A stretch of 39,637 bases of DNA from contig JAZUBJ010000054.1 of NCBI GenBank assembly GCA_045638445.1, positions 1 through 39,637 on the forward strand. Reading direction: 5' to 3'. Shown here one piece after another: positions 4,686-34,841 of this stretch. Under the pieces are notes generated by a model, which was given only the letters and a program-made list of their open reading frames with translations, did not search any database and had not been told where the DNA came from. How positions within the stretch are numbered: the stretch's first letter is position 1; the number at the start of each line of letters is the position of its first letter. Both the position numbers and the translations under genes were made by a program. Source of the DNA: Bacilli bacterium (lineage in GTDB: Bacteria; Bacillota_I; Bacilli_A; RF39; UBA660).

Positions 4686-6368
4686 ATGAACAAAATAAAA
4701 AAACTAGTATTTTTAATGATATTAATGATACCATTATGTATTAGCGCAAAATCATATACATACGATAACGCGATAAATAAAGCAAATACTTATATTGATT
4801 CATTTGATGATTATAATGATTATATAAAAGTAGGTTCAATGCCATATGATTATTATGAAAATTCAGTAAAACATAGTATACGTTTTAAAAAAGGTGGATT
4901 CTTAAGTGAAGAAGAATTTAAAATGACTAATGTAACAAATCATTCATATTTAGCAACAGGACTTGAATATTGGACTCTTACACAATCAAGCAACAAAAGA
5001 AATTATGTTGTATCATACTCATTAAATGAGCTTGATATAAATAAAAAGGCAAATGTTAGAATAACAGAATATGTAAAAAATGAAACAAAAATAGAAGGTG
5101 CAGGAACTAAAAATAATCCATGGTATTTTCAAAAAGTAAAAAATATAAACCTATATTTACTTAATGAGAATCGTGGAGATTTAGGAGAAGATGACTGCAC
5201 AGATACAGATAAAAAAATAACATTGATACAAAATGGTACAGAAGACGTAGGATTTTATATATGTCCAAAAAAAGGATACAGATATTATAATTCGAGCTGT
5301 AAAGAATTTATTAAATCAGATAGTACCATAGATGATAAATTCGTTATTAATGGCAAATTTGATGATAATGTGATTTGTTCAATAGATATAATGTATGAAA
5401 CAGATAAAATAATAACACAATGTGAAAATTGTGATAAACAAAGTAAACCAAATGTATTTTATATAGCAAAAAATAGAGATAAATGGTTTACAGACGAATG
5501 GGGATTTAATGAAGTAACAAAATTAACTAGTTTACCTGAAAAAACCGGATATTTATTTCAAGGATATTATACTGAAGAAAATGGAAACGGAACACAAATA
5601 ATAGATAAATATGGAAATATCATAAGTACAAACATTCAAGAAAATATTCCAAGTGATTATAAAATATATGCAGATTGGACTCCAATTACATATACAGTAG
5701 TTTTTGATGCAAATGGTGGGTCAGGTACAATGAATTCAATTACATGTACATATGATTTACCATGTAATACACTAACAAATAATTTTACAAAAGATAATAG
5801 TTATTTTATGGGATGGACAAAAACTAAAGAAACAACATCATCAAATAGTGGAACATCACTTAACAAAATTAATTTTGAGAATGGTGGAAAGATAAATGAA
5901 AATCTTACAACAATAAATGGTTCTACTGTAACAATATATGCAAAATGGCTATCTTGCCAAACAGGTACATTAACAAATGATCCATCAAAAGGATTTGTAT
6001 GTTTGTCAAGTAGTCAAAAATATTCATATGACTGTAATTGTGATACTTGTACAAGCTATTATACATGTATGACATCTTCAGGAGGATGCGGAAGCTATTC
6101 AAGTTATTCATATAGCTGTCAAACAGGCTCTTATTCATGCTGCAAAGGAACATATGTAAGGCATGACGCTGTTTGTAGAGTATGGGGAACTTGCCCAACA
6201 TACGGAACATGTACAGGAACTCGTTATAATGACGCACCATGTTATGGAACATGTAGTGATTCTTATCCATGTAATTGTAGTACATGTTATGCATGTAATT
6301 CAGGATGGACAACATACTCAGGAAGTGGAACTTCATTAGTATGTTATAAAGGAACAATAATAAAATAG
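4686..6368 (+). CDS. Secreted surface protein: signal peptide, N-terminal region paralogous to the 15697 gene, Listeria/Bacteroides-type B-repeat (Flg_new-like), Cys/Ser/Thr/Tyr-rich tail
   Basis: Signal peptide MNKIKKLVFLMILMIPLCISA. B-repeat motif YTVVFDANGGSGTM..FMGWTKT..VTIYAKW. Colinear with the first ~440 aa of the 1640-aa ORF. The last 137 aa contain 20 Cys. Confidence 0.75.
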   Translation: MNKIKKLVFLMILMIPLCISAKSYTYDNAINKANTYIDSFDDYNDYIKVGSMPYDYYENSVKHSIRFKKGGFLSEEEFKMTNVTNHSYLATGLEYWTLTQSSNKRNYVVSYSLNELDINKKANVRITEYVKNETKIEGAGTKNNPWYFQKVKNINLYLLNENRGDLGEDDCTDTDKKITLIQNGTEDVGFYICPKKGYRYYNSSCKEFIKSDSTIDDKFVINGKFDDNVICSIDIMYETDKIITQCENCDKQSKPNVFYIAKNRDKWFTDEWGFNEVTKLTSLPEKTGYLFQGYYTEENGNGTQIIDKYGNIISTNIQENIPSDYKIYADWTPITYTVVFDANGGSGTMNSITCTYDLPCNTLTNNFTKDNSYFMGWTKTKETTSSNSGTSLNKINFENGGKINENLTTINGSTVTIYAKWLSCQTGTLTNDPSKGFVCLSSSQKYSYDCNCDTCTSYYTCMTSSGGCGSYSSYSYSCQTGSYSCCKGTYVRHDAVCRVWGTCPTYGTCTGTRYNDAPCYGTCSDSYPCNCSTCYACNSGWTTYSGSGTSLVCYKGTIIK

Positions 6369-6376
6369 GAGGAAAT

Positions 6377-6823
6377 ATGACAAAAGGAAATTTTATAATT
6401 ATAATAGTTATATCTATAGTAATTTCAGTAGTAATGTTTTTCTCAGGATTCATAATTGGAAAAACAGTAAATAAAGAAAAGAAATGTGTTACAAATAACA
6501 ATAATCAATTAGTTGCAACAAAAAACGATGATAGAGAACAAATAGCACAATTAACTCAAGAACAAACAAGTATTTATGATTTATTTAACAAATATGGAAA
6601 AGAAATCTATAATAATAACAAATATAATAATTTATCAAAAGATGGAAAAACACCATATGCATCATTATTAGATTTGCAAAAATTAGGATATGATGTATCA
6701 AAAATTGAAAACATTTGTGAAAGTCATTCTCCAGCAATATATTTTGATATCTATAATGAATTTGCAGTTTCTTATGAAGAAGAGCCACTTCAAATAATAC
6801 TAGATTGTTACAAAATAAAATAA
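6377..6823 (+). CDS. N-terminally anchored single-pass membrane protein of unknown function, translationally coupled to the 4686 gene
   Basis: TM segment FIIIIVISIVISVVMFFSGFIIG. The upstream TAG stop is embedded in the SD (TAGGAGGaaatATG). Confidence 0.65.
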   Translation: MTKGNFIIIIVISIVISVVMFFSGFIIGKTVNKEKKCVTNNNNQLVATKNDDREQIAQLTQEQTSIYDLFNKYGKEIYNNNKYNNLSKDGKTPYASLLDLQKLGYDVSKIENICESHSPAIYFDIYNEFAVSYEEEPLQIILDCYKIK

Positions 6824-6850
6824 AATGCACAAAAGTGCATTTTTATTTTT
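6823..6850 (+). terminator. Rho-independent terminator
   Basis: aaatgcac-aaaa-gtgcattt followed by a T-rich tract. Confidence 0.7.
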
Positions 6851-6910
6851 AATTATTAGTAGAAAATTATAATTAAATTTGATATAATAAAAACATAATA
6901 GGTGAATAAT

Positions 6911-7588
6911 ATGGAAGATAAGAAACCAGAAAATAAAAAACCAATTATTATTATAATAGCTCTTGTTATTATAATTATATTATCATTAGTGATTATATTA
7001 ATTACTAAAAAGGATGATGAAAAACCAAATATTCCAGCAGATAATATAACAAATAAATCAGAAATAACAAAAAATATTCACAAACTTGACGAAAAAAATT
7101 ATTTAGTCGAAATAAAAAATAATAAAAGTAATTTGGTAAATCTAGATGTTTCAGTATATACATATAATGAAAACAAAGAAATACTAAATTCAACTAGTAA
7201 AACTATTGAATATTTAGAAATAGGTAATTCATCATATATAGAAATAGAATATGATGAAAATGAAAATAACGAATATGAAATAGTGATAGAAAAAGAAGAA
7301 GAAAGTGATTCTAGTAAATCATTTACAAAACAAATGGAATTTAATCATGAACAATTAGAAAATAATATTAAATTCACATTAAAAAATAATTCTAAAGTTG
7401 ATGTAGAAAAAATAATATTTGAAATTGTATATTATAAAGACAATAAAATTATAAAATACAATACAGTAGGATATAATAATTTATTATCAGAACAAATGAT
7501 AGGAGATATATTATATACACCACAAGATGAAAATGGTAATGAAATAGATTTTGATAAATATGAAATAACATTTATGGCTTACAACTAA
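6911..7588 (+). CDS. N-terminally anchored membrane protein with two beta-rich modules; same family as the 20629 ORF
   Basis: The track start is GTG 6902. ATG 6911 fits the GGTGA SD better. TM IIIIIALVIIIILSLVIILI, then a KKDDEKPNIP linker. The module FTLKNNSKVDVEKIIFEIVYY resembles KFTNNSGKDIEFGTINFYF of the 20629 ORF. An extended -10 (TGaTATAAT) sits at 6880-6888. Confidence 0.6.
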   Translation: MEDKKPENKKPIIIIIALVIIIILSLVIILITKKDDEKPNIPADNITNKSEITKNIHKLDEKNYLVEIKNNKSNLVNLDVSVYTYNENKEILNSTSKTIEYLEIGNSSYIEIEYDENENNEYEIVIEKEEESDSSKSFTKQMEFNHEQLENNIKFTLKNNSKVDVEKIIFEIVYYKDNKIIKYNTVGYNNLLSEQMIGDILYTPQDENGNEIDFDKYEITFMAYN

Positions 7589-7595
7589 AATGTTA

Positions 7596-7624
7596 TTGAT
7601 TGGTAAACTAATTTATGTTAAAAT
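7596..7624 (+). promoter_or_regulatory. Sigma-A type promoter for sepF-divIVA
   Basis: TTGATT, 17-nt spacer, TGtTAAAAT. Confidence 0.5.
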
Positions 7625-7653
7625 ATTTTAGTAGTACAAACTAAGGAGGATAT

Positions 7654-8043
7654 ATGAGTTTAATAAAATTAACAAATCTTTTTCCAATTGAAGTTGATGA
7701 GGAGACAGAAAGTTCAAATGAAACAGAAACAATAAAAAGTAACACAAAAGAAATGAAAAACAAAACTATTCTTGTAGAACCAAGAGCTTTTTCAGAAGCA
7801 CAACAAATTGCTGATTACTTAAAAGCAAAAAATCAAGTTGTAGTTAATTTTAAAAGAGTTACAACAGATGTTTCAAAAAGAATTATGGATTTCTTAAACG
7901 GAATAGTGTATGCTATTGATGGTACTATGCAAAAATTAGGTCCTGGTATTGTACTATGCGCACCAAAAGGATTTGAAATTGAAGGTAGCATTTCTGATGA
8001 TGATACTAAAAAAGGAAGCAAAAAAGACACTCAAGAATGGTAA
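7654..8043 (+). CDS. sepF: Cell division protein SepF
   Basis: AGGAGG SD. C-terminal SepF core VEPRAFSEAQQIADYLKAKNQVVVNFKRV..RIMDFLNGIVYAIDG. Confidence 0.85.
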   Translation: MSLIKLTNLFPIEVDEETESSNETETIKSNTKEMKNKTILVEPRAFSEAQQIADYLKAKNQVVVNFKRVTTDVSKRIMDFLNGIVYAIDGTMQKLGPGIVLCAPKGFEIEGSISDDDTKKGSKKDTQEW

Positions 8044-15696: not shown

Positions 15697-18600
15697 ATGA
15701 AAAAAATTAGCAAAATAATAGTACTAGTTATTACTTTTATGTTTTTAAGTTGTAACATTAAGGCATTAAATTATTCAAATGCGGTATCAAAAGCAGAAAA
15801 CTATTTAAATAGTATATATGAATATAAAACAACATATCACAGGTATTTAATACCAATACCAGAAGATAAGGTAACAAAGTTTTATACCGAGTTAGAACAA
15901 AACGGTGAAAATTTTAAATACGGAGGATTGTTAAGCGAATATGAATTCTTAATAACAGAAAAACATAGAGGTAACAAATATTCATATTTATATGAAAGTG
16001 ATGACTTTTGGACACTATCAAACGGAAATAGAGAAAATACAAAAAAAGTAATATCAAATAACGTAAATAACGTTGATATACACGAAGAATCACCCGGAGT
16101 AAAAGTAACAGAATTTGTAGATGATAGTACAATGATTATGGGTGCAGGAGCATATGATGATCCTTGGGTTTTTATACCTAAATATCAAGTTACTATAAAA
16201 ACTAATGATAAAAATAAAGGAATGTTAATTGACCCAACAGTATCACCACAAACAGAAACAGAGGAAGTTACAATAACATTATCAAGAAATTCAACTGCAT
16301 TCCTGAATGTAAAAGCAAAAGAAGGATATCAATATCTTGGTAATACATGTGGATACATAATAAATGACATTGATATAAGAAATTCTAACAATGTAACACA
16401 AGGTCAATTAAAAATATATGAAGTATCAAGAGATTTTGAATGTAAAATAAACTTTGGTGAAAAACCATTTGAAGTATTAATCGAAACAGATGGTAATTCA
16501 TCAAATAACACTAATTTAAATAAAATATATATTCTTCCAAAAAAATCATGGTATAGTGACGAACAAGCACAACATCAAATTTCAAAAATAAATAATGTTC
16601 CTAAAAAAACAGGTTTTAAAACAGAAGGATTATATTTAGAAAATAATGGTGAATTATTACCAAATAATACATGCCAAGGCATAAAATATATATCTAGTGA
16701 CGGAACATTAAAAGACGTTAATGAAATAACAAGAGCTATGATAGCAAATAACGTTACACTTTATCCATGCTATATACCAAATCAATATACTGTTAAATAC
16801 GATTGTAATGGTGGAACTGGAGAATTACAACCAACAACACATTACTACAATGTTGCAGCAGATTTAAGAGAAAACGCATGTACAAGAGAAGGATATAAAT
16901 TTTTAGGATGGAACACTGAACCAAATGGAAGCGGAGCATCATACTCAACAGGTTCACAAACAACTCCAGTAGCATCAGAAGGAACAGTAACACTTTATGC
17001 AGAATGGGAAAAATTAATAAAATATACAGCAAAAATACACTTAAATGGAGCAAGCAGTGTAAGTAAAGAAGAAATATATTGTTATACAGATGATGCAACA
17101 AAAGGTTGTGATATAACATTACCAACAATAACACCTGCATCAGGATTTACTGTATTGGGATTTAATACAATACAAAACGCAACTTCATCAACTAAAGATC
17201 CATCTACAACTGTAAATTTAAAAAGCGATACAAATTTCTATGCTATTACAAAATCAACATCTCCATATACTATAACATTTAATACAAACGGTTCTAGTGA
17301 TATTACTTCATCAATAGATTGCTATAGATATAATGGAAATTCAACTTGTAAAGTGGTAGCACCAAATGCAACTCCAAAAGATGGATATACGCTAATAGGA
17401 TTAAATACAGATGCAAATGCAACAACAAGTTCATGGAATATAGGAACTGAAAAAGAATTTACATCTTCTGCAACATATAATGTAATTCAAAGTAAAGAAA
17501 TACAAGCAACATTTGAAAAAAATGGAGCTTCAACAATAACTGCAACAACTGTAAAATGTAAAATATATAATGCACAACAAGATTGTACAATAAAAACACC
17601 AGGGATAACACCAATAACTGGCTTTAGTACAGTTGGATGGAACACATCTTCAAGTGCAACAGAAAGTGAAGTTGGACAAAATGCAAATGTATCAATCAAA
17701 AGTAATAAAAAATATTATGCAATAACTAAAAAAGAAATAAAAGCAACATTTATAGCAAATGGAGCTTCATCAATTGGTTCATCAATCAAAACATGTGAAG
17801 TGTATAACGGATCAACATCAGGTTGTAAAATAACAGCACCTACAATAACTGCATCAAGTGGTTTCAGTGTGGTAGGATGGAATATTTCATCATCTGCAAC
17901 AACAAGTACACTTGACCCAGGCGTTGAAATAACAATAAAAAATGATGTAACATATTATGCAATTACTAATAAAACAATTAAAGTAACATTTAATACAAAT
18001 GGAGCTTCATCAATTGGTTCATCAAGCGAAACATGTAAAGTGTATAACGGATCAACATCAGGTTGTAAAATAAAAGCACCTACAATAACTGCATCAAGTG
18101 GTTTCAGTGTGGTAGGATGGAACACAGCATCAAATGAAACAACAAGTACATTAAATGTAAATGCTGAAACAACTGTAACAGAAAATAAAACTTATTATGC
18201 AATAACTAAAAAAGGAATAACAGCAACATTCGTAGCAAATGGAGCTAGTTCTATCGGTTATAACAATAAAACATGTTATGCATATAATGGTTCTACAAAT
18301 GGATGTAAAGTGACATCACCATCAATTACACCAGTAAGTGGATTTACTGCAGTAGGATGGAATACTGATGAAGATGCAACAACAAGTATTTTAAATGTTA
18401 ATACAGATGTAACAATTAAAAATAACGTTACATATAACGCAATAACAACCAAAACAATAACAGTAACATTTAATAAGAATGGAGCAAGTGATATAGCATA
18501 CACAAGCAAACAATGTGTATTGAAAAAAGGAGATACTTCAACTGGATGCGTAGTTAGAACACCAGCAATTACTCCAGCATCAGGATTTACTACAGTTGGA

Positions 18601-20619
18601 TGGGGTACAAGTGCAAGCGCAATAAAAGGTACATCACCAAACTCTGATGTAACAGTAACAGCAGATAAAAATTATTACGCAGTAACTAGAAAAACACTAA
18701 CCGCAACATTTGTTTCAAACGGAGCAAGTTCAATTTCATCAACAAGTGCAAGTTGTCTGATATATAATGGCTCTACTTCTGGTTGTAGTGTATCAACACC
18801 TACTATAACACCAAAAACAGGATTTACAGTATTAGGATGGGCGAATGTATCAAGTTCACAAGCTGCTTCAACTCAAACAGCATCTGTTAATCAAAATGCA
18901 ACTACTACAATAAAAGCTGATACAACATTCTATGCAATTACACAATCAAGTACAGAAATTACAGTTACATTTAAACAAAACGGAACTGGAACATCTGATA
19001 CAACAAGAAAATGTCGCATTTATAATTCACAAACATCATGTAGTGTAACATCTCCAGCAATAACAGCATCAAGTGGATATACAGCATTAGGATGGAACAC
19101 ATCTTCAACTGCAACGGCAAGTTCGTGGACACAAAATACTGCAAAAAGTTTTAGTGCAAATGCAACATATTATGCAATACAAAGTAAGCAAGTAACAGTT
19201 ACATTTAAAGCAAATGGATCTTCAACAACAGAGACAACAAGAACTTGTAATATAACAGGATCAAATACTACATGTAGCGTTACTACACCAGCTATAACAC
19301 CTGCATCAGGATTTACAGCTGTAGGATGGAACACATCTTCAAGTGCAACAGCAAGCGCAGTAAATCAAAATTCATCACTTAGTGTTAGTGCAAACGCAAC
19401 ATATTATGCAATAACAAAATCAACAGCTGCAATATCAGTAACATTTAAACAAAATGGTTCTTCTACTGCAGACTCAACAAAAACATGTTATAGATATAAT
19501 GGAGCAGGAAGTTGTAATATAACATCTCCAGCTATAACACCTGCATCAGGATTTGCTGCTGTAGGATGGAATACATCTTCAAGTGCAACATCAAGTGGAT
19601 TAAATACTAGTACAGCAAAAGCATTTAGTGCAAATGCTACATATTATGCAATAACAAAATCAACAAGTGCAATATCAGTAACATTTAATATAGGAAGTAC
19701 AAGTACAACTACATCAACAAAAACATGTTATAGATATAATGGTGCATCAAGTTGTACAATTCAAACACCTGCAATAACACCAAAAAGCGGTTATACACAA
19801 AATGGTTGGGGAACAAGTTCATCATCATCAACTGCATCATATAACGCTAGTACAAATTATTCGTTCAGTGCAGGAACAACACTATACGCACTTCAAAAGA
19901 AAACAATAACAATAACATTTAACAAAAATACTGCATCATCTGTTAGTCCAACAAGTAGAACATGCACAATGTATAACTCATCAACAACTTGTTCAGTTCA
20001 AATGGCAACAATAACAGCAGGGTCAGGTAAAACAGCGGTAGGTTGGGGAACAAGTTCAAGTTCAACATCATCAAGTTATACACCAGGTTCTTCATATAGT
20101 TTCAGTGCTTCAACAACATTGTATGCAATAACAAAAGCAAATACACAAACATATACATTTAACTTTAAAAAATCTTCATCACATAGTTTTTATAGTTATA
20201 GTAGTACAACAAAATCATGTAGTGGTGCAGGAAGTTGTACAGTTTCAGCACCATCATTTAGTACGGGAAGAAATAATAAATATGGAAATCCATCATTAAA
20301 ACCATGTTGGGCAATTGGAGATGGATATGGATGCTATTATTGGCCTGGGGAATATATGTCATCATCAGAATCAACAACATGGTATACAGCAGTTGATTTT
20401 GATAATTACTATTATTCAATTTCGGATAACGGAGTTAATGCAAGATCATGTGCTAGTACATCATGTGGAATTGTAGACGGATTAAATAATGGACACACAT
20501 TTAGACCAACAAGCTACAAATATGCATCAGGAAGTGGATGTGATAATAGCATTTGGTACTATGGATACTCAGAAGAAGAAGGTTGGTGGGGATACATATG
20601 TTCATATTACGTAAATTAG
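15697..20619 (+). CDS. Giant secreted surface protein: signal peptide, N-terminal region paralogous to the 4686 gene, 13-14 tandem ~80-aa Cys-pair B-repeat-like modules, SH3b-like C-terminus
   Basis: Signal peptide MKKISKIIVLVITFMFLSCNIKA. Canonical B-repeat YTVKYDCNGGTGEL..GYKFLGWNTEPNGSG..VTLYAEW. Derived repeats follow the pattern I.VTF..NGASS......C..YNGSTSGC.I..P.ITP.SGF..VGWNTSSSAT...YYAITK. The C-terminus GVNARSCASTSCGIVDGLNNGHTF..GWWGYICSYYV resembles a bacterial SH3 domain. No LPXTG. Confidence 0.85.
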   Translation: MKKISKIIVLVITFMFLSCNIKALNYSNAVSKAENYLNSIYEYKTTYHRYLIPIPEDKVTKFYTELEQNGENFKYGGLLSEYEFLITEKHRGNKYSYLYESDDFWTLSNGNRENTKKVISNNVNNVDIHEESPGVKVTEFVDDSTMIMGAGAYDDPWVFIPKYQVTIKTNDKNKGMLIDPTVSPQTETEEVTITLSRNSTAFLNVKAKEGYQYLGNTCGYIINDIDIRNSNNVTQGQLKIYEVSRDFECKINFGEKPFEVLIETDGNSSNNTNLNKIYILPKKSWYSDEQAQHQISKINNVPKKTGFKTEGLYLENNGELLPNNTCQGIKYISSDGTLKDVNEITRAMIANNVTLYPCYIPNQYTVKYDCNGGTGELQPTTHYYNVAADLRENACTREGYKFLGWNTEPNGSGASYSTGSQTTPVASEGTVTLYAEWEKLIKYTAKIHLNGASSVSKEEIYCYTDDATKGCDITLPTITPASGFTVLGFNTIQNATSSTKDPSTTVNLKSDTNFYAITKSTSPYTITFNTNGSSDITSSIDCYRYNGNSTCKVVAPNATPKDGYTLIGLNTDANATTSSWNIGTEKEFTSSATYNVIQSKEIQATFEKNGASTITATTVKCKIYNAQQDCTIKTPGITPITGFSTVGWNTSSSATESEVGQNANVSIKSNKKYYAITKKEIKATFIANGASSIGSSIKTCEVYNGSTSGCKITAPTITASSGFSVVGWNISSSATTSTLDPGVEITIKNDVTYYAITNKTIKVTFNTNGASSIGSSSETCKVYNGSTSGCKIKAPTITASSGFSVVGWNTASNETTSTLNVNAETTVTENKTYYAITKKGITATFVANGASSIGYNNKTCYAYNGSTNGCKVTSPSITPVSGFTAVGWNTDEDATTSILNVNTDVTIKNNVTYNAITTKTITVTFNKNGASDIAYTSKQCVLKKGDTSTGCVVRTPAITPASGFTTVGWGTSASAIKGTSPNSDVTVTADKNYYAVTRKTLTATFVSNGASSISSTSASCLIYNGSTSGCSVSTPTITPKTGFTVLGWANVSSSQAASTQTASVNQNATTTIKADTTFYAITQSSTEITVTFKQNGTGTSDTTRKCRIYNSQTSCSVTSPAITASSGYTALGWNTSSTATASSWTQNTAKSFSANATYYAIQSKQVTVTFKANGSSTTETTRTCNITGSNTTCSVTTPAITPASGFTAVGWNTSSSATASAVNQNSSLSVSANATYYAITKSTAAISVTFKQNGSSTADSTKTCYRYNGAGSCNITSPAITPASGFAAVGWNTSSSATSSGLNTSTAKAFSANATYYAITKSTSAISVTFNIGSTSTTTSTKTCYRYNGASSCTIQTPAITPKSGYTQNGWGTSSSSSTASYNASTNYSFSAGTTLYALQKKTITITFNKNTASSVSPTSRTCTMYNSSTTCSVQMATITAGSGKTAVGWGTSSSSTSSSYTPGSSYSFSASTTLYAITKANTQTYTFNFKKSSSHSFYSYSSTTKSCSGAGSCTVSAPSFSTGRNNKYGNPSLKPCWAIGDGYGCYYWPGEYMSSSESTTWYTAVDFDNYYYSISDNGVNARSCASTSCGIVDGLNNGHTFRPTSYKYASGSGCDNSIWYYGYSEEEGWWGYICSYYVN
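17017..20150 (+). repeat. In-frame tandem repeat array, unit ~234-261 bp (mostly exactly 240 bp), 13 clear copies plus one degenerate copy
   Basis: ggagc(t/a) recurs in register every 240 nt at 17761, 18001, 18241, 18481 and 18721. 17761-17880 and 18001-18120 differ at only 4 of 120 positions. Confidence 0.85.
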
Positions 20620-23255: not shown

Positions 23256-23822
23256 ATGATGCAGTTAAAATATGTAGAAGATTTAACGCTAAGAGATAAT
23301 TACATAATTCTAACAAACAAATCACAAGAAATTATGAATAGAAATTATCAACTAAGCATCAATACATTAACAGAAGATGATATTATAAGTGGAATGAGTT
23401 ATCAATTTTTAGATACATTAGATTTAAAAATATATAATATAATATCAAAAATAGATAGATTAAAACAAAATATAGATTCAAAAGAATTAGCATTTAATTT
23501 AGTATATGAAATACTTGAAGATTCAAAAATATTTTCAATAAGTGAAGGAACATTAGAAAGCATAATAAACCAAATGAATAAAAGTAGTTATGCTTTCTAT
23601 CCATATAACACATTTGATGAATTTGTAAAATGTAATGATTTAAAATTTTACATAGCAAAAGATCAATTGAATATATTAATTGATGATGAAAATACAACAA
23701 TATTCGAAAAAATAATAATAATATATGAAAAATTCAGAGACAAAGAATACATGTATTTAGATGAATTTATAATCTATCTAATTAAAAGATTAAATATAAT
23801 AAAAAAGGAAGTGAAAAAATGA
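23256..23822 (+). CDS. Hypothetical cytoplasmic protein, embedded between aspS and lysS
   Basis: 188-aa ORF, 6 nt after the aspS stop. Its TGA overlaps the lysS ATG. I recognise no motif. The start could be 23256 or 23259. Confidence 0.5.
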   Translation: MMQLKYVEDLTLRDNYIILTNKSQEIMNRNYQLSINTLTEDDIISGMSYQFLDTLDLKIYNIISKIDRLKQNIDSKELAFNLVYEILEDSKIFSISEGTLESIINQMNKSSYAFYPYNTFDEFVKCNDLKFYIAKDQLNILIDDENTTIFEKIIIIYEKFRDKEYMYLDEFIIYLIKRLNIIKKEVKK

Positions 23823-25337: not shown

Positions 25338-25658
25338 ATGAAAAAGTACATACAAAACTATATTAAAGAAACAGAAAATAAATTAAAAAAAGAAATAATA
25401 AGAAAAGATTTAGAAGAACTTAAAGATAAAATTACTTTCTTTTCACACGAAAGAATAGTTCATATGTTTATAATGTTATTTTGTATTTTAATTTTACTTA
25501 TATTTGTAATATTAACTCTTCAAAATATTAAATTTCTATTAATTACAGTAATATTAATGATATTAAATATTTTTTATATAATGCATTACTATTTTTTAGA
25601 AAATTCAGTTCAATATTTATACAAACTTTACGACAAAATGAATGACAAACTAAAATAA
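25338..25658 (+). CDS. Small two-TM membrane protein, unknown function
   Basis: 106 aa, GGTGA SD. Hydrophobic segments MFIMLFCILILLIFVILTL and LLITVILMILNIFYIM. Confidence 0.5.
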   Translation: MKKYIQNYIKETENKLKKEIIRKDLEELKDKITFFSHERIVHMFIMLFCILILLIFVILTLQNIKFLLITVILMILNIFYIMHYYFLENSVQYLYKLYDKMNDKLK

Positions 25659-30307: not shown

Positions 30308-31057
30308 ATGAAAATAGTAGTACTATCAAGTAGTTCAAAAGGAAATTCAACATACATTGAACTAAATAACGTAAAATTTCTAATAGATGCAGGCCTTGGA
30401 TTCAATGATATAAAAGAAAAATTATATGAAATTGGAGTATCACCTGATGAATTAAACTTTATAATTGTTACTCATGCACACTCAGATCACGTAAGAAGTA
30501 TTCACTCATTTAATAGAGTCTATAATACAAAAATATATATTGGTTCCTCTACATATGAAGAATATAGTAAAAAAGAACTGATTAAAAATTACGAGTTTTT
30601 AGATGAACTAGATGAAATTGAAGGATTAAAATTCACAAAAATACCAATTTCACACGATAAAAGCGGTTATGGATTTGTATTTGAATACAATAATAAATCT
30701 GTTTGTTATATGGCAGATACAGGAATGATACACTTTAAATTCCATAAATATATGAAAAATAAAACAGTATATGTATTTGAAAGTAATCATGACGTATTTA
30801 TGGAAATGAATGGTACAAAAGATGAACTAACTAAATTAAGAAATATTGGAGATGAAGGCCACCTTTCAAATGAAGATTGTGCAATGTATTTAAATAAACT
30901 TATCGGAAATAATACAACTGATATAATATTAATTCATATAAGTGAACACGACAACTTACCAGAAAAAGCATATGAAGTTAATAGAACTAGTATTATAGAT
31001 GATATAAAAATACATATGTCATACCCAAATAAAATAAGTGATATCATAGAAATATAA
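30308..31057 (+). CDS. MBL-fold metallo-hydrolase, YycJ/WalJ-like
   Basis: HAHSDH (HxHxDH). The N-terminus MKIVVLSSSSKGNSTYIE..FLIDAGL..IIVTHAHSDH is colinear with B. subtilis YycJ as I remember it. It starts 2 nt after the polC stop. Confidence 0.75.
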   Translation: MKIVVLSSSSKGNSTYIELNNVKFLIDAGLGFNDIKEKLYEIGVSPDELNFIIVTHAHSDHVRSIHSFNRVYNTKIYIGSSTYEEYSKKELIKNYEFLDELDEIEGLKFTKIPISHDKSGYGFVFEYNNKSVCYMADTGMIHFKFHKYMKNKTVYVFESNHDVFMEMNGTKDELTKLRNIGDEGHLSNEDCAMYLNKLIGNNTTDIILIHISEHDNLPEKAYEVNRTSIIDDIKIHMSYPNKISDIIEI

Positions 31058-31078
31058 GCATACGAAAGTATGCTTTTT
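31056..31078 (+). terminator. Rho-independent terminator
   Basis: aagcatac-gaaa-gtatgctt followed by Ts. Confidence 0.7.
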
Positions 31079-31088
31079 ATATACAAAA

Positions 31089-31117
31089 TTGACAAAAACG
31101 AACATTTGTTATATAAT
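31089..31117 (+). promoter_or_regulatory. Consensus sigma-A promoter of paralog module 1
   Basis: TTGACA, 17-nt spacer, TATAAT. AGAGGGG SD at 31134-31140. Confidence 0.7.
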
Positions 31118-31146
31118 ATAAAACAATTTAAAAAGAGGGGATAAAT

Positions 31147-31794
31147 ATGGATAGAGAAAAATTAATAGAATATTTAGAACAAAATAATTTATTAGAAGTA
31201 TTACAAAGACAAATGCATTATATAAACTTTCCAAGATATAGAAAAGTAGTAGGAAAAAGTTTATATTTGGATTATTTAGAAAAAATTGATATGCATTATA
31301 ATACAGTATATTATATAGATGGATATGATTTCTTTAAAGAAGAAGATAATCACATAATGTTTGATGAGTATCATTATTTACAAGCAAAAGAAAAATCACC
31401 AATTGAATGTTATACAGAAAAGAAAATTAATATGATAGAACTTAAACGTTTAATAAGAACATTACCAGAAAATAAATTAATGATATTATTAAGAAAACTA
31501 AATTTACCAAAAAGTACTTTAGAAAAAATAATTGGAGCATTTGTAGATATAAATGAAGATAAAACGGTAAATGTAGAAAAAAATAAAAGTGATATACAAG
31601 TTATAACAAAAAGTATTAACGATATCCAAGTAGGTCTTTTAACAATAATTTCAGTAATGGGTGACGAGATAACAAAAGCTGATATGCAAAATGTAGATAG
31701 AATTATAAAAAAAGCAACAGCTCACTTATCAAAATTAAATCAAGAGATAATTGAAAAAGAATATGAAAAACCAAGTTCATTAAAATTAAAATAA
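31147..31794 (+). CDS. Uncharacterised paralog family member 1 (LxLK-tail protein)
   Basis: 215 aa. Aligns with the four downstream ORFs (LIEYLEQNNL, YDEYHY, SPI, LIRTLPENKLMILLRKL). Ends SSLKLK. Confidence 0.7.
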   Translation: MDREKLIEYLEQNNLLEVLQRQMHYINFPRYRKVVGKSLYLDYLEKIDMHYNTVYYIDGYDFFKEEDNHIMFDEYHYLQAKEKSPIECYTEKKINMIELKRLIRTLPENKLMILLRKLNLPKSTLEKIIGAFVDINEDKTVNVEKNKSDIQVITKSINDIQVGLLTIISVMGDEITKADMQNVDRIIKKATAHLSKLNQEIIEKEYEKPSSLKLK

Positions 31795-31806
31795 TAAGGA
31801 GAAATT

Positions 31807-32442
31807 ATGAATATTGAAAATATAATAAGCTATTTAGAAGAAAATAATTTAATTGAGAATTTATCAAAAAAAATGTATTATATGCATTTTAGTAATTTCA
31901 GAAAAGTCCTAGGAAAAAGTGCATCAGCAGACTGGTTAGAAAGAGTAGAATTGTTTTATACTACTAAATACTATTTAAACGGACGAGAATTTTTTAAAGA
32001 AGAATTAAGCACAATATATGATGAATGGGATTATATAGGAACAATAAGTACATCACCAATACAAACGTATACAAAAAAACCATTCACAAAAAGAGGATTA
32101 GTAGAATTATTAAAAAAATTGCCAAAAGAAAAAATTGAATTATTAATGAGATCTTTAAATATAGAAGAACAAGAAATACAAAGATTACTTAATCAAACAA
32201 AAGAAACTAATAATCAATCAAAAGAAAAAATAAAAAAAGAAAAAGAAATAGCAGAACTTTTAAAAAGTATTGTTGACATGCAAATAGCACTTGGTACAAT
32301 GGTACATATAATGGGTTCTCAATTAACAAGAAGTGATATACAAAATGTAAGTTCAATAACAAAAAAAGCAAAAGAATATTTGAACACTCTTAAAGAAGAG
32401 TCAAAAGATTTAGAAGAACAAACAACATTAACACTTAAATAG
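31807..32442 (+). CDS. Uncharacterised paralog family member 2
   Basis: 211 aa, AAGGAG SD. IISYLEENNL, YDEWDY, SPI, LLKKLPKEKIELLMRSL. Ends TLTLK. Confidence 0.7.
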   Translation: MNIENIISYLEENNLIENLSKKMYYMHFSNFRKVLGKSASADWLERVELFYTTKYYLNGREFFKEELSTIYDEWDYIGTISTSPIQTYTKKPFTKRGLVELLKKLPKEKIELLMRSLNIEEQEIQRLLNQTKETNNQSKEKIKKEKEIAELLKSIVDMQIALGTMVHIMGSQLTRSDIQNVSSITKKAKEYLNTLKEESKDLEEQTTLTLK

Positions 32443-32450
32443 GTGAATTT

Positions 32451-33284
32451 ATGGAAATGAGAAAAAGAATAGTAGAACAATTAGAAAAAGAAGGATTAAT
32501 AGAAATTCTAAGAGAAGAGATTTATTATAAAAACAACATTGTAAATAAAAAAATAAAAGGTCCTAGTGGATATCACGGAGGATTCGATAGAATTGATTTA
32601 GATTATGATGAAACATATTATATGGGAAGAACAGTATTATTTAAAGAAAGAAAAAACTATGACTATGATGAATGGAATTTTGTGTTGCTACCAGATAAAT
32701 CACCAGTATTAACAGGTGAAATAATGAAACCGACTGAATATCAAATCAAACAATTATTACTTAAATTACCAGAAGACCAATTAGTAAATGTAATTTTAAA
32801 AGCAAAATCAATTCAAGAAATTAGAAGATATCAATTATCAGAAGAAATAATAAGCTATTTAGAAAATAATGGATTAACAACAATAGTATTAAATAATATG
32901 TGTTATATAAATAAACCAGAAAGAAAAAGAAAGTTAAGAAAAAGTAAAAAAGCAGAAGAATGGACAAATCTTCATGAAGTCGAATTAACTTATAGAAAGC
33001 ATTATTTATTATGTGATAACGATCCAAATGAAAGCAATATACTACATGTTGAAGAATTGAAACTTGAATATGATGAAGCAGATTATACATATGCTACAGG
33101 AAAACGTCCATTAAGTGAAGATGCGTTTCCTCTAACAAAAAATGAATTATTAGCATTAATTAAAAGATTACCATATAACGAATTACAATTATTAATGAAA
33201 AAAGTAAATAAAATAGTATCAGGAATAAATTCAAATAGACAACATGGTAATTTAAATCAAATACCAAAATTAATATTAAAATAA
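32451..33284 (+). CDS. Uncharacterised paralog family member 3 (two tandem N-modules, no helical hairpin)
   Basis: 277 aa. The module occurs twice (IVEQLEKEGL..YDEWNF..SPV..LLLKLPEDQL and IISYLENNGL..YDEADY..RPL..LIKRLPYNEL). Ends KLILK. Confidence 0.7.
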   Translation: MEMRKRIVEQLEKEGLIEILREEIYYKNNIVNKKIKGPSGYHGGFDRIDLDYDETYYMGRTVLFKERKNYDYDEWNFVLLPDKSPVLTGEIMKPTEYQIKQLLLKLPEDQLVNVILKAKSIQEIRRYQLSEEIISYLENNGLTTIVLNNMCYINKPERKRKLRKSKKAEEWTNLHEVELTYRKHYLLCDNDPNESNILHVEELKLEYDEADYTYATGKRPLSEDAFPLTKNELLALIKRLPYNELQLLMKKVNKIVSGINSNRQHGNLNQIPKLILK

Positions 33285-33287
33285 ATA

Positions 33288-33311
33288 AAACATGTACTAT
33301 ACATGTTTTTT
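33288..33311 (+). terminator. Rho-independent terminator of module 1
   Basis: aaacatgta-cta-tacatgttt followed by Ts. Identical to the terminator at 34779. Confidence 0.75.
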
Positions 33312-33354
33312 ATTTGAAATTTAACAACAAAATAAAATGCAAAGTAAACAAAAC

Positions 33355-33383
33355 TTGACATTTTGTTAGAATTATGATATAAT
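33355..33383 (+). promoter_or_regulatory. Consensus sigma-A promoter of paralog module 2
   Basis: TTGACA, 17-nt spacer, (TGa)TATAAT. AGAGGGG SD at 33396-33402. Confidence 0.7.
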
Positions 33384-33408
33384 ACACAGCAATTAAGAGG
33401 GGTATAAA

Positions 33409-34101
33409 ATGAAAATAATTGATAAAAAAACAAATAGTATTATAAGTGACACAGAAAATAACAAACAGTTTGCATCAAAATTAATGGATTATATTTTAGC
33501 AAATAATCTACAAGATTATGTAATAGAACATTTATATATTAAAAACGAATTAGTTAGTAAAGAAGCTTTTGCAAGAAGCTATTCTGTTCCATGGTTAAAA
33601 TGTTATAGAATAGAATATTTGGTAAATTACTACTTTGATGATGTATTATTATCAAAAAATCCTGAGCATCTATCTTATGATGAACATGATTATTTAAATG
33701 AATTAGATAAGCCAGTTAACTTTAATTCTAAACAAAAAATAATTAAACCTATGCTATTATTAACACTTCAACAAATGAATTATTCAGCATTGTTGTATAT
33801 AGGAAGTAAACTAGGTTTGACAAGCAGTGATATGTCTAAAATGGTAGATGAAGCACAATATGATAAAAGAAACGAAGAAAGAATTAATGAAATGAATAGA
33901 AGAGTAAATCAAATAAATTTATTAAGACAATATATGCAAAACATTAAAGAAGGTCTTTCTATGATCGAAGCATCTATGGGAAGAGAATGTGAAAAAGAAT
34001 TTGCGATGTTAGGTGAATTATCAGAAGATGTAGAAAAATATATTTCAAATTTAGAAGATGAAATTCAATTTGAACAAAATTTATCATTAAGTTTAAAATA
34101 A
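33409..34101 (+). CDS. Uncharacterised paralog family member 4
   Basis: 230 aa. LMDYILANNL, YDEHDY, KPV, LLYIGSKLGLTSSDMSKMV. Ends LSLSLK. Confidence 0.7.
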   Translation: MKIIDKKTNSIISDTENNKQFASKLMDYILANNLQDYVIEHLYIKNELVSKEAFARSYSVPWLKCYRIEYLVNYYFDDVLLSKNPEHLSYDEHDYLNELDKPVNFNSKQKIIKPMLLLTLQQMNYSALLYIGSKLGLTSSDMSKMVDEAQYDKRNEERINEMNRRVNQINLLRQYMQNIKEGLSMIEASMGRECEKEFAMLGELSEDVEKYISNLEDEIQFEQNLSLSLK

Positions 34102-34118
34102 AGGAGAATAAAAAGAAT

Positions 34119-34775
34119 TTGAAAAATGAAATAAACAAACAATTTGCAATTAAATTACTAAAATATATTGAAGAAAATAATTTAAAAAATCACATATTAG
34201 GTAATTTTAATTATATGAATGATTTCCATAGCGAATACGTGATAGGAGAAAGCTTTGGATGTGATTGGATGAATCGTTGTGCAATTGATTATTCTGTTAA
34301 ATATTATTATGGCGATACTTTTTTATATGAAAAAGAAGAACAAATATCATATGATGAATTTGATTATATAGGGACAAATCAAAAACCAATTCAATTTGAT
34401 ATTAAAATTAAAATACCAGAATATTTATTATTAAGAGAATTAGAAAAATTAGATATGTCATCATTAACAATTATTGCAAGTGAAATAGGGTTATCTAGTA
34501 TTGAAATACAAAAAATGATAATTGAAATCGAATTGGAAGAAATCAATTCAGAACAATTAAAAGAAATCAATAAAAAAATATCTCAAATTACTGCTTTAAG
34601 AAATCGTTTACAAAGTATTAAAGATGAACTTTTATTAATAGGAAATAATAATGGTAGAAAATTTGATGAGGAAGTATTAAAAATATCTGTATTAACTAAA
34701 GAATTTGAAGAATATATCAATAAATTAGAAAATGAAATTGAAGAAGAAAAACAATCGATTTTAAGATTAAAATAA
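34119..34775 (+). CDS. Uncharacterised paralog family member 5
   Basis: 218 aa. Only TTG 34119 keeps the conserved N-terminal helix (LLKYIEENNL) in frame. AAGGAG SD 12 nt upstream. YDEFDY, KPI, LTIIASEIGLSSIEIQKMI. Ends ILRLK. Confidence 0.6.
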   Translation: MKNEINKQFAIKLLKYIEENNLKNHILGNFNYMNDFHSEYVIGESFGCDWMNRCAIDYSVKYYYGDTFLYEKEEQISYDEFDYIGTNQKPIQFDIKIKIPEYLLLRELEKLDMSSLTIIASEIGLSSIEIQKMIIEIELEEINSEQLKEINKKISQITALRNRLQSIKDELLLIGNNNGRKFDEEVLKISVLTKEFEEYINKLENEIEEEKQSILRLK

Positions 34776-34778
34776 ATT

Positions 34779-34802
34779 AAACATGTACTATACATGTTTT
34801 TT
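34779..34802 (+). terminator. Rho-independent terminator of module 2
   Basis: aaacatgta-cta-tacatgttt followed by Ts. Confidence 0.75.
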
Positions 34803-34811
34803 ATTTGAAAA

Positions 34812-34841
34812 TTGGACAAATACGTGTAAACTTGATACAAT
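34812..34841 (+). promoter_or_regulatory. Probable promoter of the alr operon
   Basis: TTGGAC, 18-nt spacer, (TGa)TACAAT. Confidence 0.45.

Follow-up and report, generated by a model that had tools for sequence, protein, structure and literature searches.

Five tandem genes, p1 to p5 (positions 31147 to 34775), lie between a gene for an MBL-fold protein and alr on a 39,637-nucleotide (nt) stretch of chromosomal DNA from an uncultured gut bacterium of the Bacilli (contig JAZUBJ010000054.1, assembly GCA_045638445.1; the whole stretch is called the window here) and encode a new protein family, which matches no named family in the libraries searched. The bodies of these proteins diverge, while the tetrapeptide LxLK ends every one of them, and the family is confined to about one genus, in which its gene content turns over from strain to strain. 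By analogy with the adaptor SspB we tentatively suggest, with less than even confidence, that the five proteins might be cytoplasmic binding modules that vary from strain to strain and are all attached to a common partner through one docking peptide.

Five tandem paralogs of a new protein family

The array comprises the following genes, with lengths in amino acids (aa) and isoelectric points (pI) where these are distinctive:

31147 to 31794, + strand: p1, 215 aa; N-domain, three short helices, coiled-coil hairpin, tail SLKLK
31807 to 32442, + strand: p2, 211 aa; architecture as in p1, tail TLTLK, with CTT as the second Leu codon and TAG as the stop codon
32451 to 33284, + strand: p3, 277 aa; tandem N-domains (residues 1-124 and 125-277), no hairpin, tail KLILK
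33409 to 34101, + strand: p4, 230 aa; N-terminal extension and full architecture, tail SLSLK, pI 5.0
34119 to 34775, + strand: p5, 218 aa; TTG start, full architecture, tail ILRLK, pI 4.8

The original prediction, made from the DNA alone, had described five open reading frames (ORFs) on the + strand with exactly these coordinates and lengths. It had also taken them to be homologous to each other, and pairwise BLASTP among the five genes (E-values computed with the database size set at 1e8 residues) spans E 1e-44 to 1e-4. The five genes are true paralogs, with a homology far above chance. Two subgroups are formed by p1/p2 (38% identity, E 1e-44) and p4/p5 (36% identity, E 1e-38), with p3 as a special case, and the comparisons p2-p5, p1-p3 and p1-p5 gave E-values of 2e-15, 2e-9 and 1e-7, respectively. 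In a multiple alignment p2 to p5 are 23-38% identical to p1. The five proteins have pI values from 4.8 to 8.2 and, as had been stated, contain no transmembrane-like segment (maximum Kyte-Doolittle mean over 19 residues of 1.31).

The view that the family is an unrecognised one was borne out by all searches. Scans against Pfam, NCBIfam, PHROGs and PADLOC yielded sub-threshold matches only, mostly in the coiled-coil region, and a Pfam scan at E up to 1 revealed no match of p1-p5 to Imm, SUKH/SMI1, DUF600, WXG100 or LXG. The best PADLOC match was PbeC (E 0.0017, 14.8 bits), in the coiled-coil region only, and no defence system was matched. The best hit of a sequence profile search of the PDB had an E-value of 0.093. 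Foldseek, queried with the p1 model in PDB and BFVD and with the p3 model in PDB, returned nothing at E <= 1e-3, with TM-scores of at most about 0.3, so that no confident profile or structural match to a characterised family was found. The Foldseek neighbours with LptE-like and VirB8/NTF2-like folds (E 0.07 to 1, TM-score <=0.3, probability <=0.57) resemble the N-domain in having two helices packed on a long curved antiparallel sheet, but they are periplasmic or membrane-associated proteins, and kinship was rejected because no TM-score exceeds 0.3. Judged by Foldseek against PDB and BFVD, the modelled N-domain appears to be a new fold.

Relatives of the five proteins are few. A word-indexed search of 5.8 billion proteins found 14, and 1.84 billion cluster representatives, scanned exhaustively with a HMMER profile, contained 21 at E <= 1e-3, 20 of them real members or fragments (several being fragments) and one coiled-coil noise. 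The sole members bearing a name are MBQ7790476.1 and MBQ7790474.1, both listed at NCBI as "hypothetical protein [Bacilli bacterium]". Orthologs were assigned to p1 (P0001-P0005, P0037), p2 (P0015 and positions 2017-2652 of contig L001) and p3 (P0006-P0013), and relatives to p4 (P0021, P0023, P0027 and positions 12277-12969 of contig L094) and p5 (P0016, P0017, P0020). The GTDB species representatives contained no relative. A phage or plasmid origin was considered and rejected, with no homologs in PHROGs, in an IMG/VR scan or by tblastn against INPHARED and PLSDB.

A constant C-terminal tail on variable bodies

The AlphaFold2 model of p1, which was built from 8 sequences only, predicts an N-domain (pLDDT, the predicted local distance difference test, 85-94 for residues 1-120) made of two N-terminal helices, three long antiparallel strands (23-37, 45-57, 60-73) and three short helices (96-132). 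A helical hairpin of lower confidence follows (139-171/176-206), with its turn exactly at a conserved MG, and residues 207-215 form a disordered tail (pLDDT <50). An acidic low-complexity stretch lies just before the tail and makes up an acidic disordered linker. A confident N-domain, a weaker hairpin and a disordered tail correspond together to a linear motif carried by a flexible leash. The p1 model matches the order of shared elements that had been proposed for all five proteins; in this respect p3, which has no hairpin, is not a full-length copy, and the aromatic block with the YDExDY motif, listed among these elements, is not universal in the wider family.

Instead of a hairpin, p3 carries a tandem duplication of the N-domain (1-124, 125-277) and keeps the tail, as is evident from the alignment, from the BLASTP matches of both halves to p2 and from the AlphaFold2 model (pLDDT 82, predicted TM-score 0.69; pLDDT 54-59 for the last 20 residues). 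Members consisting of the N-domain only (131-157 aa, contigs L087 and L088) still end in LILK, LSLK or ILK. The constant parts of the family are therefore the N-domain and the tail, and the hairpin is optional. The third of the short helices is absent from both halves of p3 and from the N-domain-only members.

The invariance of the terminal LxLK, already seen in the original prediction, applies to 5/5 paralogs of the window and extends well beyond it. A terminal K is present in 24 of the 26 listed family sequences; in these 24, position -2 is L (23) or M (1) and position -4 is L (22), I (1) or P (1), giving the consensus [L/I]x[L/M]K-COOH. A chance origin is excluded because [LIVM]x[LM]K occurs at only 0.0022 per residue position in ORFs of the host lineage. 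Since the Leu codons of the tails vary synonymously between TTA, CTT and CTA (TTA vs CTT in p2, CTT/CTA in contig L095), selection acts on the tail peptide and not on the DNA. Conservation as DNA, through the repeat that contains the terminators (see below), was rejected also because the tails of p1, p2 and p4 have neither repeat nor terminator. The tail is independent of the hairpin, since it is found on three architectures (N-domain only, tandem N-domains, N-domain plus hairpin).

The adjacent polC gene raised the possibility of binding to the beta-clamp. The window PolC has a canonical QLSLF near its C-terminus, and the LxLK-COOH tails lack a motif of the QL[SD]LF/QLxLxL type (by sequence comparison only). 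This idea, which was rejected, is further weakened by the polC neighbourhood being a hotspot with unrelated genes in relatives.

A related ending was found on an otherwise unrelated protein. In contig L095, a 412-aa ORF (6565-7803), whose body is unrelated to the family, occupies the same chromosomal slot and ends in EQNLSLRLK, compared with EQNLSLSLK in p4. This ending fits a portable, selected tail, though it is suggestive only. Two Leu codons of the tail differ synonymously between this ORF and p4, and a 3' remnant of p4 lies directly upstream of it; the simplest history, again no more than suggestive, would be an insertion into a p4-type gene with the last nine codons retained in frame. 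For the 412-aa protein 28 other homologs, but no Pfam match, were found; the family combines a conserved N-terminal part of about 300 aa containing an FPRSLQ motif with a highly variable C-terminus, i.e., a polymorphic-C-terminus architecture. None of the 13 homologs inspected ends in LxLK. As a clue to the function of the array the family was discarded, its homologs being tail-less and placed in unrelated chromosomal context; one of them, P0064, has a GH25 lysozyme gene on one side and a MYG1 exonuclease gene on the other.

A strain-variable array in an accessory-gene hotspot

In relatives whose PolC is 76-80% identical to that of the window, the MBL-fold gene and alr are either adjacent or split by unrelated inserts. 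They adjoin directly in L007, L008, L015 and L019, in agreement with the original proposal that the array is an insertion. A hidden Markov model scan of 80 polC-flanking loci from relatives detected no family member within 8 kb of polC. In the array-bearing contigs (L001, L087-L090, L094-L101) the family always occupies the slot between the MBL-fold gene and alr, and their MBL-fold protein is 78-94% identical to that of the window, compared with <=70% in array-free relatives. This contig distribution and these identities confine the family to about one genus, in an accessory-gene hotspot. Because the hotspot holds unrelated genes in relatives, the adjacency to polC and alr carries no functional message, and a functional link to either gene is not supported.

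Among the other contents of the hotspot is an unrelated ORF of 341-365 aa at the junction of the MBL-fold gene and alr (L010 13632-14729, L011 13762-14787, L021 6554-7579), which has an HELFHM (HExxH-like) motif and no Pfam family and is preceded in L010 by an 83-aa ORF. The junction of polC and the MBL-fold gene and the site just downstream of the latter are also variable (L007 13119-14219, L019 12621-13700, L005 12685-13506, L009 13424-14464), containing a repeat protein anchored in the membrane, an ORF of 273 aa or a pilin-like ORF whose N-terminal leader is of the methylation type.

The repertoire among strains ranges from 2 to 5 genes and includes at least 8 paralog types. The window and L094 share the arrangement p1-p2-p3 followed by p4-p5. 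L001 carries p1, p2, a sixth type and p3, and its p4-p5 slot is empty. In L095 and L096, p1-p2-p3 are kept and p4-p5 are replaced by a DUF805 protein, a 529-aa membrane-anchored ORF, the p4 remnant and the 412-aa ORF. L088 encodes members of 131, 179 and 224 aa, L087 two short forms, and L089 members of 202 and 218 aa; in L089 (2759-2977) the array runs directly into the murJ-like gene, and neither alr nor the ATP-grasp gene is found where it usually lies. In L098 (1402-1755) a p2/p3 hybrid, joined at the paralogous TKNEL...L(I/L)xRL segments, has the p3 tail out of frame and forms an ORF of 117 aa; it is evidence of recombination between paralogs, or possibly an assembly error.

The ratio of non-synonymous to synonymous substitution rates (dN/dS) between the window and L001 is 0.42 for p1, 0.50 for p2 and 0.30 for p3. 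These values are below 1, indicating purifying selection, and the array genes are therefore real. They are also several-fold to more than 10-fold above the values of polC, the MBL-fold gene, alr, the ATP-grasp gene and murJ (0.02-0.09). Pervasive frameshifts in close relatives, which would have spoken against functional genes, were not observed, and intact orthologs were present in >15 metagenome contigs.

Distant relatives of the P0030 type, which end in PPTKK, occur in L084 (10001-10654), L092 (8259-8888) and L093 (857-1510). Their immediate neighbours are constant, namely a Cys-rich membrane ORF of 242-245 aa upstream and, on the other strand, an ORF of 135 aa, and their wider contexts differ; in L092 these include LptF/G and LolA genes at 36% GC. 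The P0030-type gene and its two neighbours may constitute a mobile module. In L084 (4499-7172), at a distance of about 3 kb upstream from the P0030-type gene, a 196-aa ORF with a match to LXG of 21.9 bits (Pfam cutoff 26.5) has a 564-aa ORF and a 127-aa coiled-coil ORF as its neighbours, and hints at substrates of the type VII secretion system (T7SS) in these bacteria. As a lead to the function of the array it was rejected, being below threshold, 3 kb away and located beside a distant, tail-less relative only.

Two operons and a terminator-bounded cassette slot

The following signals surround and divide the array:

31056 to 31075, + strand: terminator hairpin of the upstream MBL-fold gene and left boundary of the array; stem of 8 bp and then a T run, -10 kcal/mol, z -5.3
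31089 to 31117, + strand: promoter P1 for p1-p2-p3; TTGACA, 17-nt spacer, TATAAT (12/12)
33270 to 33322, + strand: copy 1 of a 53-nt direct repeat, a cassette boundary; last p3 codons, stop codon and 9-bp palindromic hairpin terminator (about 33287-33314)
33355 to 33383, + strand: promoter P2 for p4-p5; 12/12, with extended -10 TG
34761 to 34813, + strand: copy 2 of the 53-nt direct repeat, the right boundary; end of p5 and hairpin terminator (about 34779-34806)
34813 to 34841, + strand: promoter-like site of alr, following repeat copy 2

As the original prediction had it, the array has its own consensus promoters, which are of the sigma-70 type. In a 5-kb scan, P1 and P2 were the only perfect 12/12 TTGACA-17-TATAAT sites, one per intergenic gap. 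Good Shine-Dalgarno sequences lie downstream of both, with a GAGGGG ribosome-binding site between P1 and the ATG of p1. Three AT-rich hairpins with U runs, after the MBL-fold gene, p3 (-8.6 kcal/mol, z -3.5) and p5, have energies of -7.4 to -10 kcal/mol and z-scores of -2.8 to -5.3. With promoters and terminators of their own, p1-p2-p3 and p4-p5 make up two autonomous operons. The TTG start of p5 sits 12 nt after GGAG; the ortholog in L094 reads ATG-AAT-ATG at this place, with its ATG start two codons upstream of the TTG of the window, and the window copy may be translated less efficiently.

The two copies of the 53-nt repeat are 94% identical, and the alternative cassette of L095 is bounded by the same repeat. 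The near-identical palindromic terminator AAACATGTACTATACATGTTTTTTATTTGAAA delimits a swappable slot both in the window (33270-33322/34761-34813) and in L095 (4118-4152/7809-7843). In L001, where the slot is empty, the terminator repeat is present as a single copy. This looks like cassette exchange via recombination at duplicated terminators.

Host chromosome and other genes of the window

The window is core chromosome with a GC content of about 25%, encoding SMC, SepF, DivIVA, DnaE, SecA, an aspartyl-tRNA synthetase, a second class II aminoacyl-tRNA synthetase and PolC, and further the MBL-fold protein, Alr, an ATP-grasp protein and a MurJ-like flippase. Scanning the window for Rfam families and tRNAs gave no match, and neither an integrase nor a tRNA landmark was seen. 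The closest PolC proteins (76-80% identity) come from gut metagenome-assembled genomes (MAGs) labelled Bacilli, Tenericutes/Mycoplasmatota, Erysipelotrichaceae or "Clostridium sp. CAG:524", and the nearest relatives of the host are MAGs from human, ruminant and rabbit guts. The host lineage is probably of the RF39 type.

After secA, an S24-like peptidase gene and a 307-aa ORF, a 1640-aa ORF (15697-20619) contains four Listeria-Bacteroides (Flg_new) repeats and lies in a region with a GC content of 0.30-0.34, compared with about 0.25. A 560-aa ORF (4686-6368) gave a weaker match to the same repeat, and the two ORFs probably encode surface proteins. Between the two class II aminoacyl-tRNA synthetase genes and ahead of polC, two conserved ORFs without Pfam match (23256-23822, 188 aa; 25338-25658, 106 aa) are both kept in L094.

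Discussion

The tail of the p1-p5 family is read as a linear docking motif because it is disordered, terminal and invariant across diverging paralogs and three architectures. In the mechanism that we consider, the fast-evolving alpha/beta N-domain would be the specificity part, presented as a probable dimer through the coiled-coil hairpin in p1, p2, p4 and p5 and as a covalent tandem pair in p3. The acidic disordered linker would serve as a flexible leash between body and tail, and the [L/I]-x-[L/M]-K-COOH peptide would dock all paralogs on one common partner encoded elsewhere. The likeliest role might be to bring ligands, possibly foreign proteins of phages or competitors, to a shared machine, e.g., an AAA+ unfoldase or protease. 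Such a docking design, together with the strain-variable gene content and the elevated dN/dS, would suggest a repertoire of adaptors or neutralisers for diverse ligands. The original prediction had offered adaptors sharing one docking tail as an example of what the array might be; the invariant tail on variable bodies of three architectures is consistent with such a possibility. In a wider and rather unlikely version, [L/I]x[L/M]K-COOH would be a new portable docking or sorting signal of gut Bacilli that have a cell wall and a reduced genome, by which a strain-specific set of adaptors with a new fold would route different, possibly foreign, proteins to one hub (a protease, unfoldase or exporter, for example) in a new repertoire-based form of cytoplasmic defence or quality control.

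The known system closest to this design might be SspB of E. coli, a tethering adaptor of AAA+ proteases, whose tail ends in ...LRVVK. In both, a disordered linker connects a folded binding domain to a conserved, very short C-terminal peptide with hydrophobic residues and Lys, and SspB is dimeric, as the hairpin or the tandem N-domain of the models would suggest for a two-fold presentation here. SspB consists of a native domain and a C-terminal region that is disordered and bears a short segment binding to the ClpX N-domain (PMC9963277). A disordered linker and a conserved C-terminal peptide are present in the family as well (tail pLDDT <50; 24/26 sequences). On the other hand, the hydrophobic residues of the SspB tail are spaced differently, and SspB is a single conserved gene, whereas the family described here is multi-paralog, strain-variable and limited to one genus.

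Several observations weigh against tethering by a common docking peptide. Neither an SspB-homologous substrate-binding domain nor any sequence or fold similarity to SspB or other known adaptors was found in Pfam, NCBIfam or Foldseek against PDB, and ClpX, ClpC and secretion ATPases are not encoded in the 39.6-kb window. One member in L088 (179 aa) and the distant P0030 type have no tail. Among about 1,000 ORFs of related genomes, the tail motif was seen in 7 independent non-family cases, RuvA and a NUDIX protein among them, compared with 2.3 expected, and a genome-wide signal was not apparent as a clear enrichment on these other ORFs. The tail of the 412-aa protein in L095 could be a recombination accident, a by-product of insertion into the 3' end of p4.

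Other explanations have to be weighed against the same evidence. The proteins might form an orphan immunity (antitoxin-like) array, in which each paralog neutralises a different polymorphic toxin of competitors and the tail is structural or incidental. The EsaG/DUF600 genes downstream of EsaD in Staphylococcus are an example of such a tandem array, and the family shares with them small, cytoplasmic, fast-evolving tandem paralogs without enzymatic motifs that vary in copy number between strains. A location in a chromosomal hotspot, strong, constitutive-looking promoters and the distant relative P0030, 3 kb from the weak LXG-like ORF of L084, would also suit an immunity array. We nevertheless regard this explanation as unlikely, since neither the window nor about 15 syntenic contigs have a toxin, LXG, Rhs or T7SS gene adjoining the array, whose neighbours are polC, the MBL-fold gene, alr, the ATP-grasp gene and murJ throughout, and no Imm, SUKH or DUF600 model is matched. 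It also leaves the tail unexplained; no need is known for an invariant tetrapeptide across 23%-identical paralogs, and neither this tail nor the modular use of one N-domain, two, or one with a hairpin is a feature of orphan immunity arrays. Export of the proteins as effectors, whose variable N-domains would act extracellularly and whose C-terminal [L/I]xLK, with or without the hairpin, would be a non-Sec signal for a T7SS-like, type IV secretion-like or ABC exporter, appears quite unlikely. Conserved termini around a variable middle, the absence of a Sec signal peptide and the strain-variable, fast-evolving nature of the family would suit it, and the hairpin with its conserved small-residue turn ([M/L/I/N]G) recalls the WXG100/LXG substrates of type VIIb systems. 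However, this hairpin is optional, being absent from N-domain-only members, lies C-terminal to a globular domain and matches no WXG100 or LXG model of Pfam; p4 and p5 are ordinary acidic soluble proteins, and no secretion-system gene was detected in the window or the syntenic contigs, T7SS core genes (EssC, ess/esx) being absent from the 39.6-kb window. We know of no secretion signal shaped like [L/I]xLK.

An exposed, disordered motif at the extreme C-terminus might also be a degron, by which unstable regulators or antitoxin-like factors are turned over by an AAA+ protease, and strong promoters would suit a high synthesis balanced by turnover. To our knowledge, neither of two known C-terminal degron classes, ssrA-type LAA and MuA-type basic-hydrophobic, ends in Leu-Lys; with no toxin partner adjacent, and with the shared instability of 2 to 5 diverged paralogs left unexplained, we consider a degron decidedly improbable. 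For DNA-binding regulators the odds appear slight. The segment of about residues 96-132, in which the original prediction had seen a helix-turn-helix, is indeed modelled by AlphaFold2 as three short helices, p4 and p5 contain an IAxxLGLS-like string, and a transcriptional regulator of PHROGs (E 0.067) and PcfF (E 0.12) were matched below threshold. Yet no helix-turn-helix model is significant, the third helix is missing from both halves of p3 and from the N-domain-only members, repeated operator-like sites were not seen, and the segment has a net charge of about 0 to -4 in p2, p4 and p5, with pI values of 4.8-5.0 for the whole p4 and p5 proteins, which speaks against the DNA binding that had been suggested. 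It is also very unlikely that the genes are functionless or decaying lineage-specific ORFs, which drift has preserved in a hotspot of recombination. Orphan expansions restricted to one lineage are common, the family has a very narrow distribution, and truncated, frameshifted or tail-less copies exist (117 aa in L098, 179 aa in L088, the p4 remnant in L095); against this stand dN/dS values of 0.30-0.50, well below 1, intact orthologs in many independent samples, perfect promoters, the invariant tail and an N-domain that AlphaFold2 folded confidently from a very shallow alignment.

If p1-p5 are binding modules docked on a common partner, their organisational logic would be a familiar one, i.e., a tandem, strain-variable accessory array of variable domain, leash and docking peptide. 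The invariant tail and the terminator-bounded cassette slot make the array unusually amenable to experimental testing. If the genes should prove to be ordinary orphan immunity genes, the finding would be of smaller value, amounting to an immunity family not described before and a clearly delimited hotspot of terminator-bounded cassettes.

The host is a member of a widespread group of uncultured gut Bacilli, and in a replication and cell-wall neighbourhood that is otherwise core, no part varies more than this locus. If docking is what the tail does, its partner would disclose a hub used by these bacteria together with a set of specificities that differ between strains, and such a strain-differing set is a typical signature of conflict with phages or competitors.

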